A stretch of DNA of 64,000 nt, taken from Eledone cirrhosa (taxonomy: Eukaryota). The notes below the pieces were generated by a model. The model did no database searches. It saw only the letters and a list, made by a program, of their open reading frames with translations, and was not told where the DNA came from. The DNA is taken from positions 300,018,001 to 300,082,000 of the forward strand of contig OZ024740.1 of the NCBI GenBank assembly GCA_964016885.1. The letters are read 5' to 3'. This document shows, in pieces, positions 720-55,020 of this stretch; position 1 is the first letter of the stretch; every line of letters starts with the position of its first letter. Position numbers and translations under genes: made by a program.

Positions 720-1548
720 TTCTTTATTAACCACAAGGGTTTACATAAAGTAGACATTAAGGACAGTGCAGGACAATACAGGACGGTACAAATGGGCATT
801 TCTGCGTGTAAAAAACAAAAACAGAAGATGTAACAAAAAAATAACAATGAAAAATTCCCCAATAGGGGGGAGAATTCGGAGGGACATTTGTGGAGAAAGC
901 CCAGTAAAAGGCCACAGTGACCCTGACCACCAAGGCAAGTGCCCTCTCCCAGTTTTCCACCTTTAATTTACAGATATATACTCAGAGTAGGCCCATTCAC
1001 TCGGGCCATTCTTGCTTTTCTCACCCATCTTTCAACAAAATGCTGGGAAGAGAGCACTTCCCTCTCTACTCTGATTTTCCTTTTCAAATGAAATTTGAAA
1101 AAGTCAATCAGAGCATCACCGAAGAGGTAAGTGCTCGTCTTCAGCCCTTTCGAACGTGTCCACCATACTATCTCTTTCGCCATGGCCACCAGACAGATAA
1201 AAACTGCCTGCCCTTCCCAGCTAAAGGAGGAGGGCGGGGCAATCCTCACGATGGACTCAGATGATAGCCGGATCCGTCCTACACGCGACAGCAGGTGTTC
1301 GACATAAACCCACAAGTCATCAATTTTCGGACACTGGACGAGTGCGTGCAGGACAGTATCGTCGCCCTGCGCGCATCTCGTACATGCCCGGCTGACGGCA
1401 CCTCCATGCCTGTAGAGTTTATCCAGAACTGGCAAGGCTCCTCGGTAGCACTTCCAGGCCAGAGATTTCTGTAAGTTGTCCATAGACCCTGGCCCGAAAG
1501 TTCTTCCGAAGAGATTGGTTAGTTGATTTTCGTCGACGCTTCCCAAGG
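720..1548 (-). mobile_element. 5'-truncated L1/Tx1-like LINE 3' end (zf-RVT-type C-terminal domain, 3' UTR, simple-repeat tail)
   Basis: ORF 968-1546 has W..YRGALPV...CTRC...DTVLHALVQC...W (CCHC motif downstream of RT in L1/Tx1 ORF2) and AKEIVWWTR; it is followed by a T-rich 3' UTR and a (TAT)n/(TAG)n/(CAG)n tract at ~622-718. Confidence 0.7.
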
Positions 1549-2221
1549 ATCTCCAGTTGATGTTAACTCTGTTTCCCAGGACTTCATAGTTTTGCCCAAC
1601 AACTGTCTGATGTTATCTGCCACCTTGAAGATCTCCAGGCTTTTGGTGATCCAAGAATGAGGCACCATGTCAAATGCCTTTTTGTAGTCTATATATCCCA
1701 TGGCAAGACTAGTGTGTCTCCTCTTGCAATTCCTCATTACCATCTTATCAATAAGTAACTGGTCCTTTGTACCATGTGACTTCTTTCGGCATCCTTTCTG
1801 TTCGTCCGGTAACAAGTTGTTTGTGTGGAGGTGATGGTAGATTTCCTCAGACATAATGCTTGTCAACAGTTTCCACATTACGGACAGACATGTGATAGGT
1901 CTATAGTTGGTAACATCATTACCCTTGATTCGGTCTTTCATTATCAGAACTGTGGTACCTTTTGTCAACCACTCTGGTACCTCACCTGACAACAAGCAGT
2001 CATTGAACATGGTTGTCAGTTTCGGGTGGAGGGATGTTATGTTTTTAATCCAATACCCCTGCACACCATCTGGGCCAGGTGATTTCCAGTTGGTTAGTTT
2101 TTTGGCCTGCCCCTTAAGAGTTTCAACTGTGATACTCAAATCAGTTTGTTGGTGTACCTGTTCACTGATCTCCTTCTGTACTGTCTCAATCCACACTGCC
2201 TGGTCATTATGTTTGACATCC
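1549..2221 (-). pseudogene. R4/Dong-type non-LTR retrotransposon RT fragment (second, divergent family)
   Basis: ORF 1519-2196: NWKSPGPDGVQGYWIK, NYRPITCLSVMWKLLT, EQKGCRK, KDQLLIDK, IDYKKAFDMVPHSW; truncated at both ends. Confidence 0.85.
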
Positions 2222-2226
2222 TTTTT

Positions 2227-2417
2227 GGTAGTATCGGTAGAGGGTCGGACGCCATGCTTTCCAGCATAGTTACGTCCCTTTACGATCTGAGTTCAAATCC
2301 CGCCGAGGTTGACTTTGCCTTTCATCCTTACGGGGTCGATAAAGTAAAGTACCAGTAAGGCCCTGGATAATTGCTGGCCTTGTGCCTAAAGAAGAAACAA
2401 TTATTATTATTATTATT
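2227..2417 (+). mobile_element. tRNA-derived SINE with (TTA)n tail
   Basis: A-box-like tggtagtatcgg, B-box gagttcaaatccc, body gcctttcatccttacggggtcgataaa..agtaccagt, (TTA)n tail; many copies in the window. Confidence 0.85.
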
Positions 2418-5400
2418 ACAGTTGCATTTATCTTGCTTTATGTTCATACGAGTTATCACCAAGTCACAACCAGTGACCTCAAGAGACAACAAGGTCCGCC
2501 ATGTTCAAGATAGAACATACATACTCACACATGCATCTTTAGTGTTTAGACTTGTGATGTACTTATATTGACAGAATCTTCCTTAGTATATGGGCAGTTC
2601 CCATTAGTACTATCTTTTGTATTTCTCCTATACGCGGGTTTCCTGGGATTTGCGATCAGTAATCAATAGACCCCTTAGGTATCATTCCCAGAGCGCCTAC
2701 AACCACTGGTATTGTTTTAGTTCTCAATTTCCACATTTTTCCAATTTCTATCTCCTGGTCCTTATACTTGCTCAATTTTTCAAATGTTTTTATAGATACA
2801 TTCTTGTCTATTGGAACAGACATATCAATTAGCAGGCATACCCTCTTTTTAAAGTCCTTCAATATTATATCAGGTCTATTTGCATCTATTTTTCGGTCTG
2901 TTTGGATGCTAAAGTTCCACAGGATTGATATGTGATCTTTTTGAAGTATGGGAGGTGGTTGATGCTCCCACCAATTCTTTTGATGGGGCAGGTCAAAATG
3001 CTTACACATTATCCAATGTATGTATTGTGCAGCTCTGTCATGCCTGTTTAGGTATTCGGTTAGAGCTATAGGACTGCACATTGAAATTATATGGTCAATG
3101 GTCTCTGGTTGTTTTTTGCATACACGGCATAATGGGCTGCATCCATTTTTTATTATGTTGGCTTGGTAATTTTTTATTGGGAGACACTGATCTTCTGCCG
3201 ATATAATCAGTCCTTCAGTCTCCGATTTCAGTCCAGAGGATGCCAACCACTGATGGGTTAAAGTTTTGTCAACATCAGGATTGTTAGCTCGCTCTGGGTA
3301 TTTTCCATACAGAGGCTTTTCTTGCCATTTCTTAGCCAGTTTCTGTAGCAGTTCTTTCTTTGCAGTTACTTTTACCTGCTTTGCTTTTTCTGTGTTTTCC
3401 ATTTCAGCAGTAAATGGGACTTCTGAAATTTGTAGTCCATTACTGTATCTTTGTGCATCTTTTGTAATGGAATATGATCTTTTGATGCTTTCGTGTTTCA
3501 AAACGAGTTTGATCATCCAATTATGTGATTCCCTTAGATATGTAGATAATCCAATTGTTGCAGTTTTCAACGCAATGTCTAACTGGATTAACCCACGTCC
3601 TCCTTCTTTCCTAGGGAGATATATTCTATCTATATCTGCTTTAGGGTGATGCATTCTGTGCATGGTTAAGAATTTTCGAATTTTTGTATCGAGCCTACGG
3701 ATCTCTGTGCTTGACCAGTTGATGACATTGTAACTGTAGGTTACTACTGGTATGGTAAGCGTGTTTATGGCATCGATCCTTGCATTCAATTCCGTTTTTA
3801 AGATTGCTCTCACTCTGCGGTAACATTCCTTCCTTATCCTTTCCCTCATTGTCGAGTGCTTGATTCCGTCTCCTTCACAAACACCTAGATATTTGTAAGT
3901 TTTTTCTTGATCAAGTTCTCTTATCACGTTCCCCCGATCAAGATTAATGTCTGAACTCTTCAGCAGCTTTCCTCTGGTGAACGTTGCTTTGGCGCATTTA
4001 TCTAGTCCAAACTCCATTTTAATGTCATCACTGAACTGCTTCACAGTGGATAATAGCCCTTGCAATTGTTCATCATTTTTTTGCAAATAGTTTCAGGTCA
4101 TCCATGTAGAACAGGTGATTAATGGTTTTGTCATAGACTTTATATCCATGTTTTGTTTCATTGAGCATTTTACTTAATGGTATAAGTGCGATGCAGAATA
4201 AAAGCGGTGATAAAGAGTCACCCTGAAAAATTCCACACTTAATATTAACCTCTTCAGCTTCCAGTGATTTTGTTTCACTATTCAAAAGGAGTGTCGTTTT
4301 CCATGTCTTCATACTGAATGACAAAAACCTCCTGACAACGGGGGATATTTTGAAAATCTCTAAACATTTTTCAATCCAACTGTGTGGCAAACTATCAAAT
4401 GCTTATTTATAATCTATCCAAGCAATCGATAGATTTTTGTGTCTATTATGACAATCTTCCAGTATCATATTGTTAACCAGAAGCTGATCCTTACAGCCAT
4501 ATGAGCCTCGTTTACACCCTTTCTGCTCAATGGGAAATAGGTCATTTGTTATCAGGTGGTCATATGTGTATTCAGTTATGACTGATGTTAAAATTTTATA
4601 CATTGTGGTCAAGCAAGTTATCGGTCTGTAATTTTTGGGATTGTTTGTCTCATCATTCTTCGGAAGCAGGAATGTAATGCCGTTAACTAGCCATGATGGT
4701 ATCTTTTCTGGCTCCTTAACTATTTCATTGTAAAGTTGGGCTAACAGCTCATGAGACTCTGTGAAGGCATTTATCCAAAAGTTTTGTATTTTGTCTTTTC
4801 CTGGGGATTTCCATTTGCTGGTTTTTCTTAGAGCCAAGCGCAACTGTTCAACTGTTATATTTTCCCATGTTTGTTCCTCAAGGTGAGCTGTATCTTTCAT
4901 TTGTCTGTCTATCCATGGGACATGTATGTTATGAACTTTTTCTTCGGCCCAGATCTTTTCCCAGAATTCTTGCACTTCCTCCTTGGGTGGTATTGATTTA
5001 GCAGTTATTGTTGACTTACCAATTTTTCTGTAGAAGTTTCTTTGGTTGTTTTTGAACATATTATTGTCCTTATAGAATCTAGATCGTTTTTCAAAGCGCC
5101 TTATACGAGCAGCTTTGGCCGACACTTTTTGCTTGATTATTTCTATCAGCATGTCTATGTCACATGTTGATTTTATACTGTACTTCTTTTTCAATTTTCT
5201 AAGTTTAGTTTGTTTAACATGTTCACCTACTTTATAGTTTGTTAAAATTTCTATGTCAGATCGGAGAAGGTTTATTTGGCGATTGATGTTCTCTTGCCAA
5301 GTAGATTTCTTGTGGGAATTCCTTTGTTTTTTCATCTTCACTCCACATAAGTGAGTGGTGACTCTAGTCGATGCATAATAGAGATGATTTAAATCAGTAA

Positions 5401-6305
5401 TGTTTAGTTTGTTTGTGATGATAATGTTTTTGAGAATTATGTTAGTCTTGTGTATTATCTTTTGGTTCTGTTTTGAGTTCTGGATCTTAGGGAGGGTGTC
5501 TCGTTGCCCCATGTCAGATTCTTTCATTTTCATCCATTCGATCATAATTTCATCCTTCAAGTTGGCAAGTTCATTCTCATTCATTTCTTTATCATTTACG
5601 ATCTCATTATTTTCATTTGGAGTTTCATCCTGAGCATGCACTCCCTCCACTTTTTCGATCCTTTCTTTAATTTTTTCTGTTGCCAGTGATTCCGCCCCAA
5701 CCCTGGGATTCGAAGTGTTACAGTTTACCTCGTTTTCACTGACACATGTTTCATTTTCCCCTCGCTGACTTTGTGCTAATAGCTTGATCTGATCAATTTC
5801 TATATTAGTTAGTAACTTTTTTCTTACAATATTTCTTCGTATATTGGCTAGTTTGTTGCTGTCAATATAGCCTCTTTTTTCGGGATGTTTCTTTTTCCAG
5901 TTGATATATGTCTGTTCTGTATTCGATGTATTTGATGGGTAGTACATGGCAGTGTAGAAAGCCTCAAGGACTTCTTTATTATCTTCCCTTGACCATTTTT
6001 CTCTATTTTTCTTTGGATTTCTTGGTGGTGAGCATGGAGGGCCAACAGTAGGAGTATTCCGGTTATGGGAGGTCTCCAGCTCCGAAGTGATGGGAAGGTT
6101 TGAACCATTAGCTAATTTTTCGACCCCAGTCTGGTTCCTCTCTGAGGGACGCGGCCCTTTTTTACCCGGGTGACGGCCGATCCGGTATGAGATTTTACCG
6201 CCATCCCGGTATTTCTTGGTCGCGGGGTTTTGATTTTGTTGTTTTTTTAAATTGTTATTATCATGAGTGGTTCCTTAATGTGAGCATTGCGTGGCTTAAG
6301 AATGA
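2418..6305 (-). mobile_element. Near full-length R4/Dong-clade non-LTR retrotransposon (RT + CCHC + restriction-like endonuclease), inactivated
   Basis: One ORF from ~6260 to 2563, split by a nonsense codon at ~4403 (IDYK*AFDSLPHSW) and frameshifts at ~4080 and ~2656; motifs KWKSPGKD, YRPITCL, GIFQGDSLSPLLF, HLFYMDDLKL, GGRGL, CRVC..ETIDHIISMC, RHD, RPDII..LIDMSVP..K..KY; the 3' end abuts (TAA)n. Confidence 0.93.
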
Positions 6306-7266: not shown

Positions 7267-7290
7267 ATATGGTTAAAAGTGTTCCATGTA

Positions 7291-7357
7291 TTTTATTATG
7301 CGCATTTCAAAAACAAATATCATCATGGGATGATATTTGCGTTCTCATCAGATAAAA
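7291..7357 (-). ncRNA. Type I minimal hammerhead ribozyme in the Naiad-like PLE terminal repeat
   Basis: Minus strand: ttttat-CTGATGA-gaacgcaaatatcatc(ccat)gatgatatttgtttt-t-GAAA-tgcgca-TA-ataaaa; stems I and II pair, stem III is palindromic. Confidence 0.85.
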
Positions 7358-10300
7358 TAGGGAGACATGATATGAAGCTTAAAAAGCCCTTGCTAGCAGT
7401 GAAGTGTTAAATCAATATACGAAAAATAAAATAAGATGGATATATGAGATTGGAAAAAAAAAAGACAGGAAGGGGGAAAGAAAAGGTAAGGAAGAGGAAG
7501 AAAGAATATAGATAGAAGAAAAAAAAATAATAAGGAAAGGATGACCGAGGAGGAATATAAGAAGGAAGGATGAGAGAGGAGATAATGAGTGAGAGAGAGA
7601 GAGATAACCTTTAATACTGAGAAACACTGTCTCACAGATAAAAATTATAGAAAAACCGTTGTAAGATAATACATAATTTAAAAAAATTAGAAATTAAAAG
7701 TTAATGAGGTTTATCAATGGTGATGCTAATGATTAAAGAAAAAGGAATTAAGAATACTAATTATTGAAGGGTTTAATAAGATGTGCGAAAAGGAATTTAT
7801 TAAAATGCATTATTAAAATAAAATATATTAAGAAGATAAGGTGAATGAAGATAAGGTTAATTGAATTATGAACTTAGAGGAATTAATTAGAGTCGAAGTT
7901 TGTTTCTATATATTGTAATAGGAAAAAGTAAATAATAGATTTAATACGAGCATGGAAGGAGAGAACAAAGAAGAAAAAATTCATGGAAGAAAAAATATAT
8001 AACGTCAAAAAAATATGTTTACAAAATTTTTCTAATGGTAATATTAAAAATAAAAATTTGTATGGCCGAGAATATAAGGAAAATGCTATAGTGAGTTATA
8101 AGATGAATTAAGAAGGAATTGAGAAGTAAAAGTTGCAGATTAAAGATTAGAAATTAAAAAAGAAGAAAATTAGGGGACCGCTAACGACATAATATGAGTA
8201 ATATTGTATAATATACTGAAATAAGGTAGAATGATGCTTATATTTGTAAAAAATATAAAAGCGTTTGAAAAAAAAAAGATTTTAAACTAATTAGGTAGTA
8301 AGATATTAGCTGTATACTTTATGGAAAGTTCTATGGGATTTATGCAAACAGAACGAAAATAAGTCCGTACGTCTATTTATTATAGAATTACAATTAGAGA
8401 TAATGCTAAATTTCTCCGCTAAACAGAGATTACATGTTCTGGATAGGAAAGAATTAAGGTAAGGACAGGCATTGCAAACGTGTGTCCAAGAATGTTGTAG
8501 TTAATATTTTTGTCCTTTAAGGACCATATGAGTTCTGAGAGTGGTGTGTTTGTTCTTTTAAGTTGGTATTTAAAAGAAGAATTGTGATTATAAAATCCTG
8601 CCTTAAAGGAAGTGGAAGTGGAACCAAAATAGGTAAAAGAATTAGTACCAGTTATAACCTTACATTCATGCACTAAATTTTTATCAAGACATTAGTTACT
8701 AAGAGGACATTTAGTTCTAACAGGGCAATTGCAATTACGATTACTGAAATTACCAGAGTTATTAGCAAGTGACCCAGTATTATTTATAGAAGGAGTTGAA
8801 TTGGAGAAGTTACTTATGATAGGTGCTAACATTTCCTGATTTAGATTGGTATTATGAACATTCGACAAAGTTACGTTTGACGTCGTATTTAAAATTACAG
8901 AATCTAGCCTAGAGTTCAGATTGACGTCCGGCTTACTATTGTTATTATTATGACGCTCAGTGTTGGATGGGTATGATTTATTACTTAATATTTTAGTATT
9001 ATGTTTTGAGATAATGTTAGCGATGGTGGAATAAGAGAATTTAATTGTTTGCTTATTAAAGATCTTAATATAAATATGAGGGAAGCATTTATCTAAGGCC
9101 CTAAAAAATAGTTTAGGAATATTACTAATAATAGATAGAGGAAAAGGAGCGTTGTACCATATCATATTTTTATATCTAGGTCTTTTCTTTATACTATTGG
9201 AATGCTTATAACTAACTATATTACTATAAGTTCCTCCATGATTGGTTTCTTTACTGTATTTAATTTTGTCAGGATAACCGGCCCTGGAAAGCGCATTGTT
9301 GTAATAATTGGCTTTAGTGTCAAAGATAAGTTTATTAGAAGATAGATTTGAGATTCCTTTTTCAACATTACTGTCTATAGCATTTTTAACGTTAATAGGG
9401 TGGTTAGATTTAAAATTAACATAATTTAGATTATCATTGTCTTTATGGTAAGGCTAATATAGGCCGGCGTCAAAATTAAAGATATATCCAGGAAATTAGC
9501 TAGTTTGACGTTTTTTTCAAATTCAATTTTTAGGTTATGGTGCTTAAATAGATCAAGTATATTATTTTTAATAATATTAAGGTTAACTAAGTTACAGTTT
9601 AAGACAGTAAAAAGAGAATCGTCACGATAAATTCCACCGCGAAGTTGAGGAATTTTCCGATTTAAAGAGTTCAAAATAAGGATTCCAACCAAGTCCGTCA
9701 ATTGCGCTGAATCCGACGAACCCATTGTGATATCAAAATTGTTGGAAGTATCAGCTCTAGTCCAATATTCGTTGTTGAATTCCAGGATAGTTGTTACTTG
9801 CGGTGAGAATGATGTACAATTCATCTGTCGTGATGTCAGAATATTTAAATGCAAAAGAGAGAGCGTTGTTGAGGAGTGAAGGCGAAATGGTAGAATAGTA
9901 ACTGGCAATGTCAAACTGAATACATTTTTGTTTGTTTTTATTATTCAGGTCATTGAACCAGTCGATTACATCAGATGTACCAATCCTTAAATTAGCACTC
10001 AACAGTTTATAGGACTGGAGTATAAATAATATAAAATAATTGCTCTATTTCTAACTTAAATTTATGGATTGGTACATCTGATGTAATTGACCGGTTCAAT
10101 GACCTGAATAATAAAAACAAAAGTATTAAAAGTTATCTCTCTCTCACGCATTTTCTCCTCCTCTCTCATCCTTCCTTCTTATACTACTGCTCCGTCATCC
10201 TTTCCTTATTATTATATATTTTTTCTTCTATCTATATTCTTTCTCCCTCTTCCTTACCTTTTCTTTCCCCATTCCTTTCCTTTTTTTCCAATCTCATATA

Positions 10301-10383
10301 TCCATCTTATTTTATTTTTCATATGTTGATTTAACACTTCACTCTTCGCAAGTGTTTTTTAAGCTTCATATCATGTCAGCCTT

Positions 10384-10450
10384 TTTTATCTGATGAGAAC
10401 GCAAATATCATCCCATGATGATATTTGTTTTTGAAATGCGCATAATAAAA
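10384..10450 (+). ncRNA. Type I minimal hammerhead ribozyme (inverted repeat copy)
   Basis: Same motif as 7291-7357 on the + strand; CTGATGA at 10390, GAAA at 10433. Confidence 0.85.
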
Positions 10451-10625
10451 TACATGGAGCTCTTTTCACCATCTTTTGATTTTATATTATTTATACTCCA
10501 GTCCTATAAACTATTGAGTGCTACTTATCCGGTATTTGCATTGCTTTATTGTGCTGCAATAAAACTCACCTCCTACATATATATAATATTATATATATCA
10601 TATTATAATAATAATAATAATAATA

Positions 10626-18570: not shown

Positions 18571-18626
18571 ACTGCTATATATATTTCGATGATAGCCATT
18601 AAATGGCTATGACCTCATCAGGCAGT
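18571..18626 (-). ncRNA. Type I minimal hammerhead ribozyme (separate family)
   Basis: Minus strand: actgc-CTGATGA-ggtcatagccat(tta)atggctatcatc-GAAA-tatata-TA-gcagt; perfect 5-bp stem I. Confidence 0.83.
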
Positions 18627-24908: not shown

Positions 24909-24998
<90 letters not shown>

Positions 24999-25087
24999 GA
25001 ATTTTCAATTTCTGCTTGACCGGCAACTGCTCTGTATAATCAGTTCCTGATTATTTACTAGAATTCTATAAGAACCAAACATCCATG

Positions 25088-25181
25088 ATTTCAGCAAACA
25101 GGAGGAGGAGTTGGCTTTGATAAGCATCAATAAATGCGAAACAAGGCCTTGTCAGCTTTATCTCCCCCTGTTTGCTGAAAT
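25088..25181 (+). ncRNA. Hammerhead ribozyme, U3-A8 core variant with long extended stem I
   Basis: atttcagcaaacagg..ggct-TTGATAA-gcat(caataa)atgc-GAAA-caaggccttg-TC-agct..cctgtttgctgaaat; GUC triplet, palindromic stem III. Confidence 0.85.
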
Positions 25182-25345
25182 TAAAGTAAGTGAGTCTGTC
25201 ACTACTCTAAAACAATAGCATAAGGTCTTCGAAATGCTTTTAATTAAGCATACAGTGTATTGCAAAATACATTATATATACATTCATATATATATATATA
25301 CATATATATATATATGTGTGTGTGTGTGTGTCTGTGTGTATATAT

Positions 25346-26810: not shown

Positions 26811-27651
26811 AACGAACAATCAGTGGTGCATTTGGACTCAGTTTATTGCGTGTTACAATTGTTTCGCCGGCATGTAGATCGATACATGATCACTGTATGT
26901 GTCTGGCTGATTCTACGGCTGCAGGTTCCTTCGGACACGGGTAGTTCGTTCGGAGCAAAACTAGGGTGTTATCGTAAAAAAACGCCTTCAAAAAACATCT
27001 TCCACTCTTGTCATGCCATTGGCTGTTGTTATTCTACGTCATCTTAAGTTCTGGTCACTATTTACTGCTACACGGGTCATCAGCCATTTTCCGTCCGACA
27101 CACTTCAATGGAGTCGTGCTGGGTTCGGTATCTCACACGTCTGTTTACACTCCATAGTATGTACCCGCACATACACACACACATATATACACACACACGG
27201 GCAGGCACAGACACATGCGTCATACACATATATACGCATACATGCGTATGTATTAAGTATTGGTGCTCTGAGATAAATATGTATACATGATTGTACGTAT
27301 AGTATAATTGGTAATATACTATATGTTTAATTAAAAACAATTTGACGATGACTCTTTATGAGTTTAAAAGAAGTGACTATGTCACTTACTTATTATCAGC
27401 AAAAGCAAAGAATAGTGATCGATTGTCCTGTTTCTCGCTCGTTAGGGTTTATGAAGACCACTAATAGCGAATGATCTTTAAAATGTTTTTCATTAAACAT
27501 ACAGTATATTGCCAGATATACTATACATACATTCATGTATACATCGCTATTTCATACTAATACTAATACCTAATTTTTGCTGCACCGGCAACCTCTTTGT
27601 TTAATCAGTTCTTAAATATTAATGGAATTCTATAAGAATCCAGCTTCTGTA

Positions 27652-27744
27652 ATTCTCGGCGGAAGCAAAGGAGTGAGTAGTCTTGAGAAACGCTAACGTG
27701 AGTAAAATGTCTTTCAATCTATCTTCTTTGCTTTTGCCGGGAAT
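27652..27744 (+). ncRNA. Degenerate homolog of the 25088-25181 hammerhead
   Basis: Homologous flanks (ccggcaac...gaattctataagaa / aagtaagtga..cactact); long stem kept with different sequence; TTGAGAA core, GAAA lost. Confidence 0.5.
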
Positions 27745-28063
27745 AAGTAAGTGATTTAATCAAATCACTACTTTAAAACTCATAGCGAATGATCTTCAAA
27801 ATGTTTTTAATTAAACATACGGTATATTGCCAATTATACTATACATACTATACATCAATATATATATATATATATAGTATAAAGAACGAGGAATGAGTAA
27901 TGCATCAGACTACAATTTATTAACCTATTACATATGTTTCTCCGTCGAGCAGCTCGAGGCAGGATCTGTTACAGATCGAGTGCTCAACCGGCATACCGCC
28001 TACGGACGCATTTCCCTACAACCCTACATCAACTATGTATATATATATATATATATATATACC

Positions 28064-39239: not shown

Positions 39240-39448
39240 CGTTTCAGAATTTGTTTAGCAAGATTCTTTATATGAAAACGTCTGTTGAAAGCGATATTAT
39301 TATACTTTGGGAGGGTCATGTTGTCAATAAGAAACACACGCACCAGGTGCTTTTAACTTCAATTTATTATAATAAATTTATAAATTTAGGAATTCATAAA
39401 TTTCCGGTTGGTTGGTTGGTTCCACAACCAGATGATTGTTTATATATT

Positions 39449-39491
39449 GTCAAAGTTCTTTCGTCACACATTCTGTGACCTCTTCAGTGAC
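39449..39491 (-). ncRNA. Minimal hammerhead motif in the inverted PLE repeat
   Basis: Reverse complement of 44266-44308. Confidence 0.65.
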
Positions 39492-42400
39492 TGGGGATTC
39501 TTTTCTTTGTTTTTGGTGCCTCTCCTTTGTTCTGTCCTACGCCATCTTGTTTTTTGTGTGTGTTGTGTGCTTAGTTTGCGCATGTGTTACATCCGGGTGT
39601 CCGTGTGTGTTTATATTCGTTTATTTATTTGTTTATTTGCATGTTACTGGTTGGTTGTTTGTTCTATGTGCGTGTGTGTTTTCATTTTGTCCTTACTTGT
39701 AAGTTGTGATGTTGCTGTTCTATTCATGTATTCTATTTAATTTTGGTTGGAGTTCATTTATGTTTATTGCCTCTGTGATTTGTCTAAACATTGCGTCTTT
39801 TCTGTGTGCAGATTCTATATTTATTTCTATGTTCTCTAATTTACCCTTATGTTCTATTTTAGCATGTTGGTAGAGTACAGATAATTCTTTACTAACTTGA
39901 AGGTCTCGCCAGTGTTCATTTATCCGTTCCCCTATACTACGAGCTGTCTCACCTATGTACACTATATTTTTATCTCTACATTGTCCTTCAGTACATCTTA
40001 TGCTATATACTACATTTCTAGTTTTACAGTTAATATGGAGGCTTAATTTACAGATTATACATTTCTTATCCCTACAGGGAGGTCTTTGAAAAGGGTATGC
40101 ATTGCTAATAAGTGTTTTTATGGAGGTACCTGGTCTTTCTACTATCTTAATATTGAGTTTATGTTTATCTAGGGCCCTTCTAAATTTGTAAGCTAATTCA
40201 CCTCTAGGGGTTGTATCGATGAACATTACACTCTGGTATTTATTGCTATCATACCATGAGTTTATTCTATTAGCCTTATTCCTTGTTCTTTCTATTCTAT
40301 TCCAAAATTTTGTCTTATACAAGGGACAGGTCCCATTTGTGTCATTATTTACCGTTTATTCCCATTTGGTTCTGGCTCCTCTATATACTCTGATTTTATC
40401 TCTCTGATTCTAAACAGAGAACTGCATACGGTGGATGAAGTGTTGTATGTGTCTCTCTATTCTTTGGGGTTGCACATGCGGGACACGTTTCTCCTCACTC
40501 ATACCAAATCCGCAATCAGTATGTTGATTTTGGTATTGTCCGAAACAGCTGAGTTTCGGTGGATTAGATATTTGGAAGTCATGGGTTTGGCATAATGGGA
40601 ATGGAGGATTTGTTATTTGTTATTAATGGTATCTAACCAGAGCTCTGTGTATAGTAGAGGAAATCCATGGTTGGGGTGTTTGCTTGGGTAGTCTATATAA
40701 CTCAAGAAAAACATAAGCGTAACCTAATACAAGAAATATCTAAGATCACCACACCAAGATAAAAAATAATATTTATAAGCCTTATATGTCCTGAAGAAAA
40801 GTACATTGTTCTAGAAGGTGACAAGCACTTTAACAAGAAACTAAAGTAGCTCAAACAGATAAAACTAAATCAAGATACTTTAGAGAATATCCATAGATAT
40901 CGCGACAAAATTTTCGGTATAAATATGGCCGACATCTCATTAACAGATGAATTCAACAACAACAACACAAATATATACGGCAATACTACGGTCGACTCTG
41001 ATGAATTATCAGTATTACAACTACCACCTAAGTATGCCACATTTAATAAGGTAAATATGATTAAATGCTTGTCAGAAATAGAAAAATCATTTACAAAATT
41101 ACGTTGGAGCCTCAAAGACACAAACAAAAACAAAAGTAACAACATACGCACACAAACACACATATACAACACACAACCCAACAACAACAGACACACAGAC
41201 ACAAACAACAATAACAACAACACACACATCAAAAATAATAACATACTCCGAAACAACAACAACAGACACGCAGACACAAACAACAATAACAACACACACA
41301 ACAATAATAACATACACGGAGAGAACAACAACACACATCCACAACAGCACACATCAACAACAAAAACAACAACACACACACATTCAATGCCTCTCACCAC
41401 CACCACAATCTTAACAAACACACAGACACAGAAAACAGGTAAAGACAGTAGCATAGAAATAAGGGAAGGTAATAGGATTGAAAGGAGAAGGGAGACTATG
41501 GACAGAGAAAATAACCAGGACGAACACACAGACACACAAAATAGAGTATAATAACAATGAGCCAGAGGAAAGAGAGAGGAGTAATAATGAGAGACATAGA
41601 AACAACCATGAGGCTGTTGGTGGAAATAGAAATAGAAACAACACAACTAACAATAACAATAGCACTAGTACACATAAAGCAGCAGCCTGGAACTCTACTT
41701 TTTATAATCCCTCCGATAAGTCGTTCGACCTGCGACGAGTCCACGCCATGACTTTAGATTTTAACAAACGCACGCAATTGCCGTCGCAGGTCGATGAACA
41801 AACAGAAGCACAATTTAGTATAGCTAGATCTAAACTTAGAAATATTATAGAACAATATAGCAAGAAGCATAATAGAATGGAGGCCCAGCAACTGGGAGAA
41901 AAATCTGCAAATGGCTTGCGTAAGCTCATGCAGCGCTCGCGTAATGGAGAGATAGCATGCTTTCCAACAGACAAGCCTGGCAGAATGTCGGTTGACAGTC
42001 TGCCAAACTACATCCAGGAAATGCAACCCCACATCACTAACACAAGAGAAGTAACACCACAAGAGCATGAGGATAGAGAAAAAGCCCTCAATGCCCATAT
42101 GATGATGTGGACAAATATAATGCAGCCCAAATAAAGGACTGCCAACAACTTCCAGGCCTGGAACAATGACGTGCCAGCGTTGTATGGGCTTCGAAAAGAC
42201 CATAAAACGAGCAGTGACCCTGTCACAGGACCACCAACACGGGCAGTCTGTAGAGCTAACATTGCTAATAACTACAGACTGTCCTACTTCCTCTCCCTGA
42301 TCGTACGCCACATCAATGAAATGTCCCCAGATGTATGTGACAGCACGGAGGACCTCCTCAGCAGAATCGGCGAGAGTAACCGATCTAGGGACCTAACAAA

Positions 42401-44265
42401 GTGCATAATGGTAGTATGGATGTTGTGTCCCTGTATCCATCTATTGACGTGGATTTTGCAGTGGAGAAATGCGTAGAAATGATCAGTGAGAGAAATGTTG
42501 AATTCCGTGGGATTGATACCAGTGAGCTGGGACTCCTACTTAAACTTACCTATAGCAATAATTATCTAGATACATATGAGCTTAGCAACCTGTGCCCTAC
42601 AAGACCAGCGAGAGGCAGACCACCTACCATTACCTCAATGGCTAGGAAAACCCACACAGATAGATGGAACGGGTGGACCAGAGACATACGGACCCCCGAA
42701 AACCACGATGAACTAAAGTAAATGATTGCACATGCGGTGGGGGCCAGCAAAAAATTAACCCTTAAGGAACATATGTTGAGATTTAATGGAAAAACATAAG
42801 CCCAAGAGTAGGGAGCAGCCATTGCAGGGGACTTAGCTAACCTATTTATGGTATGGTGGGACAGTAGACTTAAACTTAAACTTAAACTTAAAGATAAATT
42901 AGATGACCGCTCAACCCTGATAATGTACTCTCGCTACGTTGATGATATAAACATCGTAGTAAAAATACCCCCACTAGAGAACAGTCAGGAATTAAAGAAA
43001 AACACAATGGAAAGCATCCAGCAAAGAGCTAACTCCATCCACCAGAGTATTAGAGTTACTATAGACTACCCGAGCAAACACCCCAACCATCGATTACCTA
43101 TACTAGACACAGAGCTCTGGTTAGATACCATTAATAACAAAAAACAAATCCTCCATTCCCATTATGCCAAACTCATGACTTCCAAATATCTGATCCACCG
43201 AAAGTCAGCTGTTTCGGACCATACCAAAATCAACATACTGATTGCGGATTTGGTACGAGTGATGAGAAACGTGTCCTGCATGTGCAACCCCAAATAACTA
43301 GAGAGATACATACAACACTTCATCCACCGTATGCAGTTCTCTGGTTACAACCAGAGAGATAAAATCAGAGTATATAGAGGAGCCAGAACCAAATGGGAAA
43401 AAATGGTAAATAATTACACAAATGGGACCTGCCCTAGTATAGGAGCAAATTTTGGTATAGAATAGAAAGAACTAGGAATAAGGCTAATAGAATAAACTCA
43501 TGGTATGATAGCAATAAATACCAGAGTGTAATGTTCATCAATACAACCCCTAGAGGTGAATTAGCTTACAAATTTAGAAGGGCCCTAGATAAATATAAAC
43601 TCAATATTAAGATAGTAGAAAGACCAGGTACCTCCATAAAAACACTTATTAGCAATACATACACTTTTCAAAAACCTCCCTGTATAGATAAGAAATGTAT
43701 AATCTGTAAATTAAGCCCCTATATTAACTGTAAAACTAGAAATGTAGTATATAGCATCAGATGTACTGAAGGACAATGTAGAGATAAAAATATACTGTAC
43801 ATAGGTGAGACAGCTCGTAGTATAGGGGTACGGATAAATGAACACTGGCGACACCTTCAAGATAGTAAAGAATCATCTGTACTCTACCAACATGCTAAAA
43901 TAGAACATAAGGGTAAATTAGAGAACATAGAAATAAAAATAGAATCTGCACACAGAAAAGACGCAATGTTTAGACAAATCACAGTTGCAATAAACATAAA
44001 TGAACTCGAACCAAAATTAAATAGAAAACATGAATTGGACAGCAACATCACAACTTACAAGTAAGGACAAAATGAAAACACACACGCACATAGAACAAAC
44101 AACCAACCAGTAACATGCAAATAAACAAATAAATAAACGAATATAAACACACACGGACACCCGGATGTAACACATGCGCAAACTAAGCACACAACACACA
44201 CACAAAAACAAGATGGCATAGGACAGAACAAAGGAGAGGCACAAAAACAAAGAAAATAATCCCCA

Positions 44266-44308
44266 GTCACTGAAGAGGTCACAGAATGTGTGACGAAAGA
44301 ACTTTGAC
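44266..44308 (+). ncRNA. Minimal hammerhead motif in the PLE 3' terminal repeat
   Basis: gtca-CTGAAGA-ggtcaca(gaatg)tgtgac-GAAA-gaac-TT-tgac; very short stem III. Confidence 0.68.
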
Positions 44309-44577
44309 AATATATAAACAGTCATCTGGTTGTGGAACGAACCAACCAACCAACCGGAAATTTATAAATTCCTGAATTTATAAATTTATTATAATAAATT
44401 GAAGTGAAAGCTACTGGTGCGTGTGTTTCTTATTGGCAACATGTCCCTCCCAAAATATAACAATGTATATATGTATATATAATCATATCTTCGTGTACAG
44501 ATATTATTGCATACACAATAACAAAATATGAACAAATTTTTTATTTCACGAGGCTCGACAGCAGCAAAAACAACATC

Positions 44578-49425: not shown

Positions 49426-49504
<79 letters not shown>

Positions 49505-49710
49505 ATACAAACAAATATTGTTATACTTGGGGAGGGTCATATTTGTGTAATATTGCCAGAATTAATAACAGAATACACTCACTGTTTGGTTGGTTTTCGC
49601 TTCTGTGTCTTTTATATCGGTTAATTTAATTTATTCGGTCCTCAATGTTGCCATTGACTGACCAACGGTCAAAAATTCAGATACAATATAGTCACAAACA
49701 CATATAGTCT

Positions 49711-49752
49711 ATCAAAGTTCTTTCGTTGCACATCTGCAACATCGTCAGTGTT
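49711..49752 (-). ncRNA. Hammerhead-like motif in the PLE terminal repeat
   Basis: Minus strand: aaca-CTGACGA-tgttgca(gatg)tgcaac-GAAA-gaac-TT-tgat; weak stem I. Confidence 0.55.
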
Positions 49753-52700
49753 GCTATTATGTTTCCCCCCTTTGCAATGTATGCTTACGCTATCTTTATT
49801 TAGTCTGTTTATTTATTTATTTATTTGTTTATTTCTTTTGTCTCTTCTGCGCATGCGTTTGCGTATAGTGTTTTGTTTGATGTGAGTTCTTGTTTGGGTG
49901 ACTGTATATTGGTTAATGTATTCTATCTTAGTTTACTAGTGTGTGTTTATATGTGTTTGCTGTTATTGTGCTTGTGTATGTATTTATCTATTTATTTATT
50001 TATCTATCTATCTATTTAGACTTCTCTTAGGTCAGTGTTGTTTGTTTGGGTGTTGTTGTTATTCCATTCATTTTTTTCTGTTTAGCCTTGGCCTTCAAAG
50101 TTCTATTTCGCTGGCCTCTCTGATTTGCCTATCTGCTGGGTCATTTCTATGTTTAGATATTATTCTAACTTCTATGTTGTCTATGTTATCGTTGTGTTGT
50201 TGTCTGGCACATTCGTATAGTACTGAACCGTTTATTCGTCCTTTTAGTTCCCCCTAGTGTTGGTCTATCTTTTCACCTATGCTACGAGCTGTCTCGCCTA
50301 CGTATGTTGTTGTCATGTTTCTGCAAGTAGCCTCTGTATATCTTATGCTATAGACTTCGTTTCTAGTTTTACAGTTTATCCGGTGGTTTACTCTACATAT
50401 GATACATTTCCTATTAGTACAGTGGCTTTTCTTAAAAGGGTAGGTTTTGCTGATCAGGGATTTTATGGTGTTCCCTGGCTTTTCTACCACCTTAATATTT
50501 AATTGGGTCTTCTCAGGGCCTTTCTACACTGGTTAGCTAATTTCCCTCCAGGGGTAGCGTCCACAAACATGACACTCTGGTATCTCTGGTTGTCGTACCA
50601 TGAGATGGCTTTCCCTATCTTATGTCTAGTCCTATCTAAGCTATTCCATGATTTGCTCCTGTATACTGGGCAAATTCCTTTCATGTCCAGTTCTATGAGG
50701 GTCTTATACTTTTCCATGGCTCCTTCGTATACTCTGACTCTGTCTCTTTGGTTGTAGCCAGAGAACGGCATGCGGTTGATGAAGTGTTGGATGCGTCTTT
50801 CCATTTATGTTGGGTCGCACATGCGGGACACGTTCTTCATCACTCGTACCAAGTCTGCGATCAGAATATTAAACTTAGCACTACTGGACATTGCTGAGTT
50901 TTTGAGTATCAGGTATTTGGAGGCTATGTGTTTAGCATAGTGTGAGTGGAGAATTTGTGCTCTCTCGTCTATAGCGTTAATCCAGAGTTCCGTGTCTAAT
51001 ACAGGTAGTCTATTGTTAGGGTGTCTGGAAGGGTAGTCGATAGTTACAGTTATACTCTGGTGTATGGAATTAGCTATCTGTTGGATGCTTTCCATTGTGC
51101 TACGTTCTAAATCAAACTTGTTAGTGCTCTCTTGTGGGGATGTCATTATTATATTGATGTCGTCTACGTAACGAGAGTACATGATGAGGTCTATGGAGCT
51201 CTCATCAAGGAGATCATTGACTCTCCTTTCCCACCATACCATAAACAGGTTGGCAACGTCACCAGCTATGCAGACGCCAATGGCTGCTCCCTCATTTTTG
51301 GTGTAGATCTTCTCGTTGAACTTGAATATGTGGCCCTTTAGGGTAGTTTTGGTACTAGCCCTATTGCATGTGCGACCATTTTTCTTAACTGATAATTGTT
51401 TTGGGGGTCCGTATACCTTTGGTCCACCCAATCCACCTTCCCATGGGAGTCCTTTTTGCCATTGAGGTTATGGTGGAGGGTCTACTTCTTATGGGTCTAC
51501 TGGGGCAGAAACGGCTAAGGTCATGGCTGTCTAGGTTGTCAGTGTCGTACGTAAGTCTAAGTAGGAGGCCCAGTTCGTCTGTGTCGACGTCGCAGAACTC
51601 CACCTCACTCTCAATGACCATCTCCACACATTTTTACACAGCTAAATCAATGTTAATGTATGGGTACAGTGATACCCCATCTATACTGCCTTTTATGCAG
51701 TTGGATCGGTTCCTGTTTTTGTTGCACTCACTGATTCTGCTGAGGAGGTCCTCTGTACTGTCATATACATCTGAGGACATCTTGATTATGGGGCGTATAA
51801 CTATTGAGAAGAAGTAGGAGATCCTGTAGTTGCTAACTATATTTGCCCCGCATACAGGTCTTGTTTGTGGTACTGTTGTCGCGTCGTCGACTGTCTTGTG
51901 GTCTTTGCGGAGCCCATACAAGTGTAGTATGCCATTGTTGAACGCCTGGAAGTTGTTGCCAGTGCGTCTGCTTGGCTTTAGGATGTCGGTCCGCATCATC
52001 ATGTGAGCGTTGAGGATTTTCTCTCTCCCATGATGTATTTGCTGTGCAATTTCGCTCGTGTTGGTGATGTGGGGTTGTTAGCCTTGATGTAGTTCGGCAT
52101 GCTGTCTATTGAGATCCTACCAGACTTATCCGTGGGTATACATACTACCTTACCATCCCTCGTGCGCTGCTTGAGGCTAACCAAGCCTTCTACAGGTTTC
52201 CTCCCAAGTTGTTGGACCTCTGGTCTGCTCTGTCTCTTAGTATACCGGTCTACTATTTGTCTAATCTTATTTCTAGCTATGGTGAACTGTGCCTCTGTCT
52301 CGTCATCTATTTGTTGTGGTATGCAAACTCTTTTATTAAAGGGTAACCTCGTAGGATAGATATTACCCATCTTATATCTTTTGTCAGCTGGGTTGAAGAA
52401 AAGTTTCTCTAAGGGGTTGTCATTATATCTATCGTCATAGTTGTGTGTGTTGCTATTATTGTTATTATGGTTGTTGTTGTTGTTCCTATGATTAGCATTA
52501 TTATTATTGTTATGATTGCTAGATGTATTGTTGCTGTGATTGTTCGATGTATTGTTGTTGTTTTCTCCACCGTTATTGTTGTTGTTACTGTTATTTCTAC
52601 CATTGTGGTTGTTACTTTTATTATGTTTCTTGATTTTGTTGTGTCTATCATTAATGTTGCTACATATATTATTTTTATTATTACCACTGTGGTTGTTGTT

Positions 52701-52958
52701 GTTGTTATTCGTATTGTTACCCTTATTACTACTGTGGTTGCTGCTGCTGTGTCTGTAGTTAATGTTTCTATTATTATTATTATTATTATTGTGGTTGTTG
52801 TTGTTCTGTCTATCGTTAGTATTATTACCCTTATTACTATTTCTCACTCTCCTGCTATTGTTATTGTTATGACTATTACTATTATAGCTGTTATTTCTAT
52901 ACTCAGAGTTATTGTTTATATTACTACTACCGTTATTATTGTTGTTGTTGGAGGGGAT

Positions 52959-53120
52959 TGGCAGTATCGGTAGAGAGTCGGACGCCATGCTTTACAATCT
53001 GAGTTCAAATCCCGGCGAGGTTCACTTTGCCTTTCATCCTTACGAGGTCGATGAAATAGAGTACCAGTAATGTACTGGGTTATTTGCTGGCTTTGTGCCA
53101 AAAGTATAAACAGTTATTAT
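52959..53120 (+). mobile_element. tRNA-derived SINE nested in the PLE ORF
   Basis: tggcagtatcggtagag...gagttcaaatcccggcgagg...gcctttcatcc; lies within the Asn-rich coding tract. Confidence 0.85.
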
Positions 53121-54080
53121 TGTTGTTGTTGTCCGTATAGTTGTTGTTGTTGTTTACTTTTGCATTCCAACGTATTTTTGTGAAACACTTTCCAGCTCCG
53201 TTTTACACTCAATAGGGTTAATCTTTTTGTAGATGGCAAATTTTGGTGGTAGCTGCAGGATTTGTTGTTCTTGTTCACTGATTAAAGTGTTCCCATAAAT
53301 ATTTACTGTGTGGTCATTGGTAAATTCTTCCGGTAGTTCTACATCAGTCATACGGATATTGTTGATGTTATCTGGGTATTTTTGTGAATATTCCATTTTT
53401 CTTTCTTCTAGTTTTTTCTTATTCATCCATTCTAATTTCTTATTGAAATGCCTATTGTATTCGTTTCGGGCGTATTTCGTTTCACGTCGGATGACGCTCA
53501 TGAAGTCATCCCTCTCGTTTGGTGTGGTGAGATTTCGGACTTCCTTACCGTTAATGCGTTTCTGTCTGTAAAGTTCGTTAACTTTTGTGTATGTTGTTCT
53601 TTTCATATTAACTGTTATTGTGTGTTTTAGTCGTTCAGCTTGTGTTTTGTTCAATAATAAATTATTTACTTGTTTTGATATGTTTGTTGAGTATATTTTG
53701 GAGGAAACACAGTGTTTTAAGAAGCGGATTTGGTCTGTTGTTATTGTAGTTTTTTATAAACAGAAAAAAATGAATGGAATAACAACAACACCCAAACAAA
53801 CAACACTAACCTAAGAGAAGTATAAATAGATAGATAGATAAATAAATAAATAGATAAATACATACACAAGCACAATAACAACAAACACACACTAGTAAAC
53901 TAAGATAGAATACATTAACCAATACACAGTCACCCAAACAAGAACCCACATCAAACAAAACACTATACGCAAACGCATGCGCAGAGAAGACAAAAAAAAA
54001 ACAAATAAATAAATAAATAAATAAACAGACTAAATAAAGATGGCGTAAGCATACATTGCAACGGGAGGAAACATAATAGC

Positions 54081-54122
54081 ACCACTGACGATGTTGCAGA
54101 TGTGCAACGAAATAACTTTGAT
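54081..54122 (+). ncRNA. Hammerhead-like motif (inverted repeat copy, mutated stem III)
   Basis: acca-CTGACGA-tgttgcagatgtgcaac-GAAA-taac-TT-tgat. Confidence 0.45.
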
Positions 54123-55020
54123 AGACTATATGTGTTTGTGTCTATATTGTATCTGTATTTTTGACCGTTGGTCAGTCAATGGCAATATTGAGGACCGAAT
54201 AAATTAAATTAACCGATATAAAAGACACAGAAGCGAAAACCAACCAAACAGTGAGTATGTTCTGTTATTAATTCTGGCAATATTACACACATATGACCCT
54301 CCCCAAGTATAAACAAATATATATATATATAGAGAGAGAGGGGAGAGAGAGTGAGAAAGAATGAGAAAGAGTGAGAGAGGGTGAGGAGGATGGAATTTGT
54401 GAATATGAAAAAAAATCATATATTTTTACTATAAACATTAAGGAATGAATTAACTACACATTAATCAGTTGTAATATTTATATTTTGATTACATTTATTT
54501 CATTTTTCTTTCATAAAATTAATCTCTAATCTTTCGTCAGTGTACAAAATAGTGTGCTTCATTTAATTGTTTTAGAAAAATTGTTAAAACTTCTGAAGGT
54601 GAAACGTATTATATATTATATCGCTATTAATTAAGATTTTACTCTCTATATAACAATTAGAAATAAAATAATGCATTCAGTTTGATGATTTTTGTTTTCT
54701 TTTATTACTTTTAAACATATATATTTGCGTATAACATAGAGACAATACACTAAGTGAATCAATTCTGCGTACTCTTCTTTAAACCACAACAAACATAAAT
54801 ACACCCGAGGGTGTGTAATTGCCAGAGATAGTATGATTGTATGAATCTCTGAGTCTGAATAAACAAATATATATGCGCACATGTAGATAGATAGTCATAT
54901 ATGTAAATATATTGGCATAATTATATACATACCTATACATAGACAAACATTTACACATATATATGGATATAAAAATATATCAAACGTATTCATTGTATAT
55001 ATGTCCGCACACACACATAG

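Follow-up and report, generated by a model that had tools for sequence, protein, structure and literature searches.

Is a hammerhead ribozyme whose core departs from the standard consensus the remnant of a decayed motif or a compensated variant of a working one, and how does it come to stand where it does? The question is raised by positions 25088-25181 (plus strand) of the 64,000-nt stretch of Eledone cirrhosa DNA analysed here as a whole (contig OZ024740.1, positions 300,018,001 to 300,082,000; hereafter the window). Read from the sequence, this segment has the layout of a type I hammerhead, its helices enclosing the core in the arrangement proper to that type, and all of the hammerhead elements that the initial annotation had described as being in register were found in place. 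The 5' strand of distal stem I (25088-25102) forms 15 perfect base pairs with 25167-25181 and is followed by a stretch (25104-25112) that comprises a middle helix (25104-25107/25162-25165) and the 5' side of the stem I internal loop, with a private G at 25108. The 5' strand of proximal stem I, GGCT (25113-25116), pairs with AGCT (25154-25157), one of the pairs being G-U, and leads into the catalytic core U3-U4-G5-A6-U7-A8-A9 (25117-25123, TTGATAA in the DNA). Stem II (25124-25137; GCAT-CAATAA-ATGC) has 4 bp and a 6-nt loop II, whose last A lies at 25133; then come G12-A13-A14 and the 12-nt stem III palindrome (25141-25152), which together occupy 25138-25152, include A15.1 and U16.1, and hold the predicted dimer interface. 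From the hammerhead numbering, cleavage is predicted 3' of C17 (25153). The remaining stretch, 25154-25181, holds the 3' halves of the stem I elements (proximal stem, internal loop, middle helix and distal stem), recognised by pairing and covariation. The literal CUGANGA consensus is not matched, the core being UUGAUAA; U3 (25117) and A8 (25122) form a Watson-Crick pair, and U4 G5 A6, A9, G12 A13 A14, A15.1-U16.1 and H17 are all kept in the window copy.

The hammerhead descriptor gave no match in 30 dinucleotide shuffles of the window, which, together with the covariation of the stems described below, bears out the earlier view that the fold is real. The hairpin has a folding z of -6.75, with 0/200 shuffles equally stable, a value for the entire hairpin, which folds best in a form other than the active one. 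An Rfam scan of the window returned nothing at gathering score: the best hammerhead match was Hammerhead_HH9 (RF02275), with 17.7 bits against a 52-bit cut-off. The miRNA and snoRNA matches, all far under cut-off, were rejected as artefacts of hairpins or microsatellites. HH9 resembles the window motif in its extended type I form, 4-bp stem II and 6-nt C..A loop, but the window motif, scoring far under 52 bits, is not a member. It was nevertheless the sole hammerhead model to match, at 17.7-29.6 bits and always below its cut-off, with best scores of 20.7 bits in 20 C3-G8 loci and 29.6 bits in 20 U3-A8 loci. Since Rfam misses C3-G8 and U3-A8 relatives alike, the core is not the reason why profile searches fail.

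The presence of the hammerhead in the window is explained by a mobile element that carries it, which the initial annotation had not noted. The motif lies in a lone, 5'-truncated insertion (25000-25296, plus strand, from its mapped ends) that comprises 297 nt of a ~319-bp non-coding repeat unit with 97-100% identical copies genome-wide. An (AT)n(AG)n microsatellite (24912-24999) stands at the 5' junction, and at the other side the AT-rich 'short' 3' end of the unit, placed by end mapping, runs into a genomic (TA)n tract (25280-25315, plus strand). A 271-base query gave 2241 first-look candidates in the genome, the best of the 40 that were scored reaching 97-100% identity, and a 31-base core has 361 exact genomic copies; the copies of the unit are dispersed over many contigs. 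Unit length was taken from the natural tandem L014, which holds three ORF-free head-to-tail units; locus L050 holds five, and natural dimers, trimers and one five-unit stretch are known. The unit is 34% GC, lacks an LTR and carries one type I hammerhead, and one natural 322-nt unit folded as a circle is 57% paired at -78.7 kcal/mol, a figure for a single unit without shuffle control. A degraded, ~70%-identical, two-armed relative lies nearby (27256-27868, with 27256-27403 on the minus and 27463-27868 on the plus strand); its core (27683-27689) is U3-A8, as is its family. The summed depth of contigs from public runs is ~10-40x higher at 25020-25060 and 25190-25270 than over the ribozyme, which hints at a large further set of relatives with the same flanks and either a different hammerhead or none.

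By its architecture, the repeat is a non-LTR retrozyme. The metazoan non-LTR retrozymes (PMC7229834; bioRxiv 10.64898/2026.07.22.740005) share with the unit an ORF-less tandem organisation in the 150-450 bp range, low GC, the absence of an LTR, and the company of Penelope-like elements (PLEs). The text consulted from the same papers does not mention the mix of U3-A8 and C3-G8 cores seen in the unit. PLE-like ORFs also co-occur in the window. These ORFs are labelled PLE-like from recognised motifs and from their architecture; Pfam gave only sub-threshold RVT_1 and GIY-YIG matches, for 2 of 5 proteins.

How the 3-8 pair behaves across the superfamily was tabulated genome-wide with one anchored pattern, which requires 20 intact bases so that the counts are lower bounds: at least 3547 cores are U3-A8, 1618 C3-G8, 79 C3-A8 and 67 U3-G8, against 10, 4, 5 and 11, respectively, with reversed-pattern controls. 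Paired cores thus make up 5165/5311 (97.3%), and the 146/5311 mismatched cores compare with 2305 expected if positions 3 and 8 were independent, bearing in mind that the copies do not count as separate events. About two thirds of the copies have U3-A8, which makes it the majority core, and C3-G8 is found in sister subfamilies. The mismatched cores are scattered across many subfamily types, which is the pattern expected of decay after insertion. The supposition that U3-A8 is uncommon therefore does not hold here, and natural cases had also been published (PMC3088659; ~1,300 Schistosoma matches in PMC4209133). The companion claim, that a CUGANGA search would miss such ribozymes, stands, and applies to 3547/5165 paired cores of the superfamily. 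When positions 3 and 8 were left free in a search for close copies, a check set beforehand, U3-A8 was found in 99 and U3-G8 in 1 of the 100 matches listed (289 in total), so that the refuting outcome named in the initial annotation, copies mostly without the paired U3/A8, did not occur. C3-G8 combined with the window's own stem III had 0 matches in the genome, C3-G8 being seen only with the looser anchored pattern.

Public-run contigs show paired changes in stems I, II and III. Following these up brought out the 70%-identical relative at 27256-27868 and a sister subfamily whose palindrome is another one; the sister subfamily has 1190 genomic matches and A8 in 99 of the 100 listed. Of the four public runs listed as carrying the sequence, none is of RNA, which speaks neither for nor against expression. 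The three main public runs represent one sample, which may be the assembly's own source, and a fourth run yielded two contigs with positions 3 and 8 unchanged, at a depth of 2-4 that is too thin for a claim about a second species. Positions outside the search pattern are likewise intact, with A15.1-U16.1 in 69/70 aligned rows and H17 never G in 70. Judging from the sequences, U3-A8 is a compensated core and not a product of decay, and the existence of sister C-G subfamilies together with the scarcity of mismatched cores suggests that the cutting site has been kept by selection. Two further variants were noted among U3-A8 members: a second U3-A8 lineage (L166-L190; window 27683-27720) opens its stem II with an A10.1-A11.1 mismatch, a further non-canonical trait, with 137 exact matches, and a young U3-A8 subfamily (e.g. 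G000:C1:3352618-3352695; L106, L117) carries an additional A after stem II, just ahead of G12.

To place these cores on a tree, 151 units were taken, of which 116 with full flanks were kept and thinned to 78 at 95.5% identity, and 8 were then dropped (four mis-registered, one junction chimera and three in which position 3 or 8 held a different letter), which left 70. The final alignment consists of 35 U-A and 35 C-G rows, so that 3-8 pairing in it is 100% by construction and no evidence is drawn from pairing there. With positions 3 and 8 masked, the tree of 70 units has 2 label changes, forced by starred branches, and a topology uniting all U3-A8 units in one clade is rejected (p-AU 6.7e-45); with the ribozyme left out, the tree has 3 label changes. 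As reconstructed from these units, the 3-8 pair has changed at least twice on the family tree, and thousands of copies boil down to 2-3 independent changes. The window subfamily falls inside C3-G8 lineages on the midpoint-rooted drawing of what is an unrooted tree, and ages give no order: within-group divergences overlap (0.04-0.24), which, together with confounding by locus picking and junction chimeras, means that the tree cannot be rooted by age. Two histories require 2 changes each: U-A may have given way to C-G and then returned, or it may have been gained twice independently. Alternatively, the young U-A core may have come by transfer of a short patch from the other U-A lineage, which is conceivable because the basal young U-A row departs from its C-G sisters at position 7 as well. 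As for the helices, 19/27 pairs have changed on both sides across the 70 rows, all helices included (7/12 counted pairs in distal stem I, 4/4 in proximal stem I and 4/4 in stem II). Paired cells amount to 91.2%, against 81.2% in shuffled and 34-45% in slid alignments, numbers in which the 3-8 pair is there by construction and related rows inflate the counts. The stem III palindrome has been rewritten yet kept, palindromic or nearly so, in the subfamilies seen.

Both the kind of element and the U3-A8 core are already known, and what is new, a modest addition, is the flipping of the 3-8 pair within a family. The first natural covariants from C3-G8 to U3-A8 were reported as 'several examples' across genomes (Perreault et al. 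2011, PMC3088659), likewise with a palindromic stem III permitting a dimer, and the available text of that paper does not describe switching within a family. About 1,300 Schistosoma matches to a U3-A8 descriptor were subsequently found in PLE motifs (Cervera and De la Pena 2014, PMC4209133). The same paper presents U3-A8 minimal hammerheads of Cercyon PLEs in Schistosoma mansoni, which resemble the window motif in their compensated core, Penelope context and proposed dimer action. The PLE minimal hammerhead is described there as having a helix II of 7-8 bp, an extra nucleotide at 9/10.1 and a minimal helix III (PMC4209133), whereas helix II of the window motif is 4 bp long and ends in a 6-nt loop; the motif has no extra nucleotide, a 12-nt palindrome and an extended helix I, and belongs to an ORF-less tandem unit. 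Among the papers that the literature searches listed, none dealt with a tandem retrozyme bearing U3-A8 or with 3-8 switching within one family, a limited negative that covers main texts.

If the hammerhead belongs to a mobile unit, how is that unit inserted? In 109 loci, 154/176 3' ends fall within a 60-nt AT-rich part of the unit and 0/176 at the cleavage site, and 5' ends are scattered, with 2/176 within 25152-25156. A cleavage-site signal in the insertion ends, considered on the basis of these counts, was rejected as indistinguishable from chance. Copies read through the cleavage junction, which suggests that the template is a circle or an uncut multimer. The 171 loci examined for head-to-head pairs hold 67 of them: 46 join a short and a tailed end, 4 two short and 2 two tailed ends, and 15 have an unclassified end, so that short plus tailed accounts for 46/52 pairs with both ends classifiable (p = 1e-8). 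Among the best 30 loci, which were picked as near-full matches, both orientations occur in 20/30 and a colinear piece of >330 nt in 27/30. The tail is ~25 nt long on a reference for end mapping that stops at the tail; in the tandem locus L014 it leads straight into (TA)n. PLE insertions are described as showing 5' truncation, partial tandems, an inverted 5' copy, a one-ended tail and (TA)n targets, and the unit matches them in truncation, tandems, inversion, one-ended tail and (TA)n targets, but its tail is ~25 nt compared with 30-40 bp (PMC8557442). Tail length aside, insertions of the unit show all of the listed hallmarks of PLE mobilisation.

A search for a partner element found PLE-like pieces beside the unit in some of 190 loci, none of them recurrent. 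In two loci (L034:583-2022 and L036:1-1653), PLE-like sequence is fused directly to the retrozyme 5' end, and these junctions are possible template-switch chimeras, the L036 junction being one case only. An account of L034 as a single two-armed event, with the PLE-like arm head to head with the unit, was discarded, as a tail on both arms does not fit. There are also single insertions in which one and the same mismatched 3-8 core recurs in the two arms or in multiple units (G000:C1:112636488-112636789; C3:283973339-283973690; C2:83743971-83745245), suggesting a single RNA molecule as the template of the two arms.

The window holds further hammerheads and elements. Two C3-G8 hammerheads, at 7351 (minus strand) and 10390 (plus strand), combine a long stem II with a palindromic stem III of 8 nt and sit in the inverted ends (7269-7618 and 10122-10472) of a PLE-like element whose broken reverse transcriptase and endonuclease ORFs lie at ~8695-9944 (minus strand). 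Another C3-G8 hammerhead at 18621 (minus strand) has an AT palindrome as stem III and adjoins a (TA)n tract. Two more PLE-like elements, 39296-44465 and 49498-54331, have inverted ends, each end bearing what looks by eye like a minimal-hammerhead motif (near 44270 and 54085). The former has one short and one tailed end, like insertions of the unit; the first and last letters of its tail resemble the retrozyme tail and offer a lead to the partner. Broken LINE-like reverse transcriptase ORFs in several frames occupy 1522-6274 (minus strand).

Whether the ribozyme would act alone or in pairs was approached by folding with nearest-neighbour energies, which contain no tertiary terms. In the best fold of the window monomer, 25113-25119 are paired to the first half of the palindrome (predicted off-helix with 25142-25148), and the active fold lies 8.8 kcal/mol above it (6.5 after an in-silico C3-G8 swap). 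In the young U-A lineage, U4-G5 is predicted to be sequestered in 49/52 monomers, with a median gap of 6.9 kcal/mol, and the gap of the C-G sister subfamily is only 1.2 kcal/mol. Two copies of a typical member of the family, folded without constraints, come out best as a strand-swapped double hammerhead. This state comes to within 1 kcal/mol of the two-copy optimum in 32/52 units of the young U-A lineage; it is not favoured in the other groups, where the same applies to 5/16, 2/18 and 2/11 units, 27 units being unparsed. It lies 2.0 kcal/mol above the best for two window copies and 3.7 kcal/mol above it in the natural tandem L019, where two off-folds are favoured. By sequence order, the off-helix is complete while the 3' strands of stems III and I are still to be transcribed. 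Its pair 3-15.4 is intact in 70/70 rows, two other off-helix pairs are often broken, and A at 15.4 occurs only together with U3 (9/9, one event on the tree).

A contact between loop II and stem I, which the initial annotation had suggested, is plausible in the family from its conserved nucleotides. In the conserved A-U Hoogsteen contact, a U adjoining residue 1.6 meets the A that ends loop II (PMC2553840). The last A of loop II (25133) is present in 70/70 rows and the stem-I loop U at window position 25108 in 68/70; U at 1.7 is found in 52/70, and an extra U in the window subfamily places A at 1.7. The window copy itself has G at 25108, where T stands in 27/27 readable close copies (2/29 were unreadable). 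As a lone unit that has lost the stem-I loop U at 25108, it is probably inert, a dead-end insertion; its activity is doubtful given the lone unit, the predicted misfolding of the monomer and the G at 25108.

For the family, we favour, at a probability of about 0.7, a type I hammerhead in a ~319-bp Penelope-ended repeat that likely cuts after C25153 only when two copies pair via their palindromic stems III. A lone monomer would fold into an 'off' state with U4-G5 sequestered, two copies would pair through stems III into an active, strand-swapped double hammerhead, this dimer would cut after C25153 (C17), and the unit would be inserted with Penelope-type ends, giving tandem and head-to-head copies at (TA)n. 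Dimer action through a palindromic stem III is a published model (PMC4209133; PMC3088659, Fig. S8 legend; PMC6765202). Several results stand against it: when all pairwise mutants of one type III hammerhead were scanned, only a G-C swap rescued 3-8, other double mutants remaining low (PMC9901934), 8/9 Xenopus retrozyme dimers were uncleaved in vitro (bioRxiv 10.64898/2026.07.22.740005), and the need for a dimer is questioned by coral (~0.8/min) and mussel (~0.1/min) retrozyme hammerheads that cleave as monomers (PMC7229834). Also against it are the folds of the other groups and of L019, in which the double hammerhead is not favoured, and the failure to identify a partner element in 190 loci. 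The coral and mussel cases equally favour a ribozyme in the same element that needs no partner to cut: its stem III of 4 bp, capped by 4 nt, and the contact of loop II with stem I would together overcome the off-fold. The conserved Hoogsteen nucleotides (loop II A in 70/70, U at 1.7 in 52/70) and the gap of just 1.2 kcal/mol in the C-G sister subfamily fit this account, but we consider it unlikely in view of the far larger gaps of the young U-A lineage (52 units) and the window copy, the early completion of the off-helix, the persistence of a palindromic or nearly palindromic stem III in the subfamilies seen, and the A that the extra U puts at 1.7 in the window subfamily.

It is also conceivable that the U3-A8 hammerhead is slow or silent, its fold being kept for another role, such as recognition by reverse transcriptase or RNA stability, and copying proceeding from uncut multimeric RNA. 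The low activity of swaps other than G-C (PMC9901934), the inactive Xenopus dimers (bioRxiv 10.64898/2026.07.22.740005), the low in vitro activity of PLE minimal hammerheads, the near absence of insertion ends at the cleavage site (0/176 3' and 2/176 5' ends) and the A10.1-A11.1 mismatch in the second U-A lineage all accord with such a role. Nevertheless, it is improbable, as a tertiary pair of the active site appears to have been compensated at least twice, as selection on catalysis predicts, positions left free in the search pattern (A15.1-U16.1, H17) are intact, and 3-8 covariants were active in vitro according to PMC3088659, citing Przybilski and Hammann 2007. Finally, the unit could be a pseudo-LTR of an autonomous Penelope-like element and its copies truncated ends of that element, given that tails, inversions and (TA)n targets are common to both, that PLE ends bear hammerheads, U3-A8 ones included (PMC4209133), and that Xenopus retrozymes are related to pLTRs (bioRxiv 10.64898/2026.07.22.740005). 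This we regard as very improbable: head-to-tail units are ORF-free, three in L014 and five in L050, copies share no coding flank among 30 loci and no recurrent PLE-like stretch in 105 and 190 loci, none of the window's three PLE-like elements has ends that match the unit, and the flanks of the 30, 105 and 190 loci contain no ORF with reverse transcriptase and GIY-YIG between pseudo-LTRs that belongs to the unit.

Why the pair should flip at all is a matter for speculation. The 3-8 pair might be a tuned switch, in a lineage that went from U-A to C-G and back to U-A, with U3 co-evolving with the palindrome to deepen the 'off' helix and so trading catalytic speed for a strict dimer dependence that protects the circular template. 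We hold this to be rather doubtful; if true, the superfamily would provide a ready series of natural variants from which to gauge the amount of cleavage that a retrozyme requires.

Penelope-linked hammerheads may or may not need to cut: their in vitro activity is often low or absent, and one paper allows that the hammerheads might merely parasitise PLEs. Repeated compensation in the active site, with no expanded mismatched subfamily seen, is evolutionary evidence that spread needed a working core. The superfamily offers closely related natural U-A and C-G ribozymes for side-by-side comparison, and retrozyme censuses based on CUGANGA would overlook about two thirds of it. Within-family flips of the 3-8 pair thus make the question of whether retrozyme hammerheads must cut testable on natural sequences.
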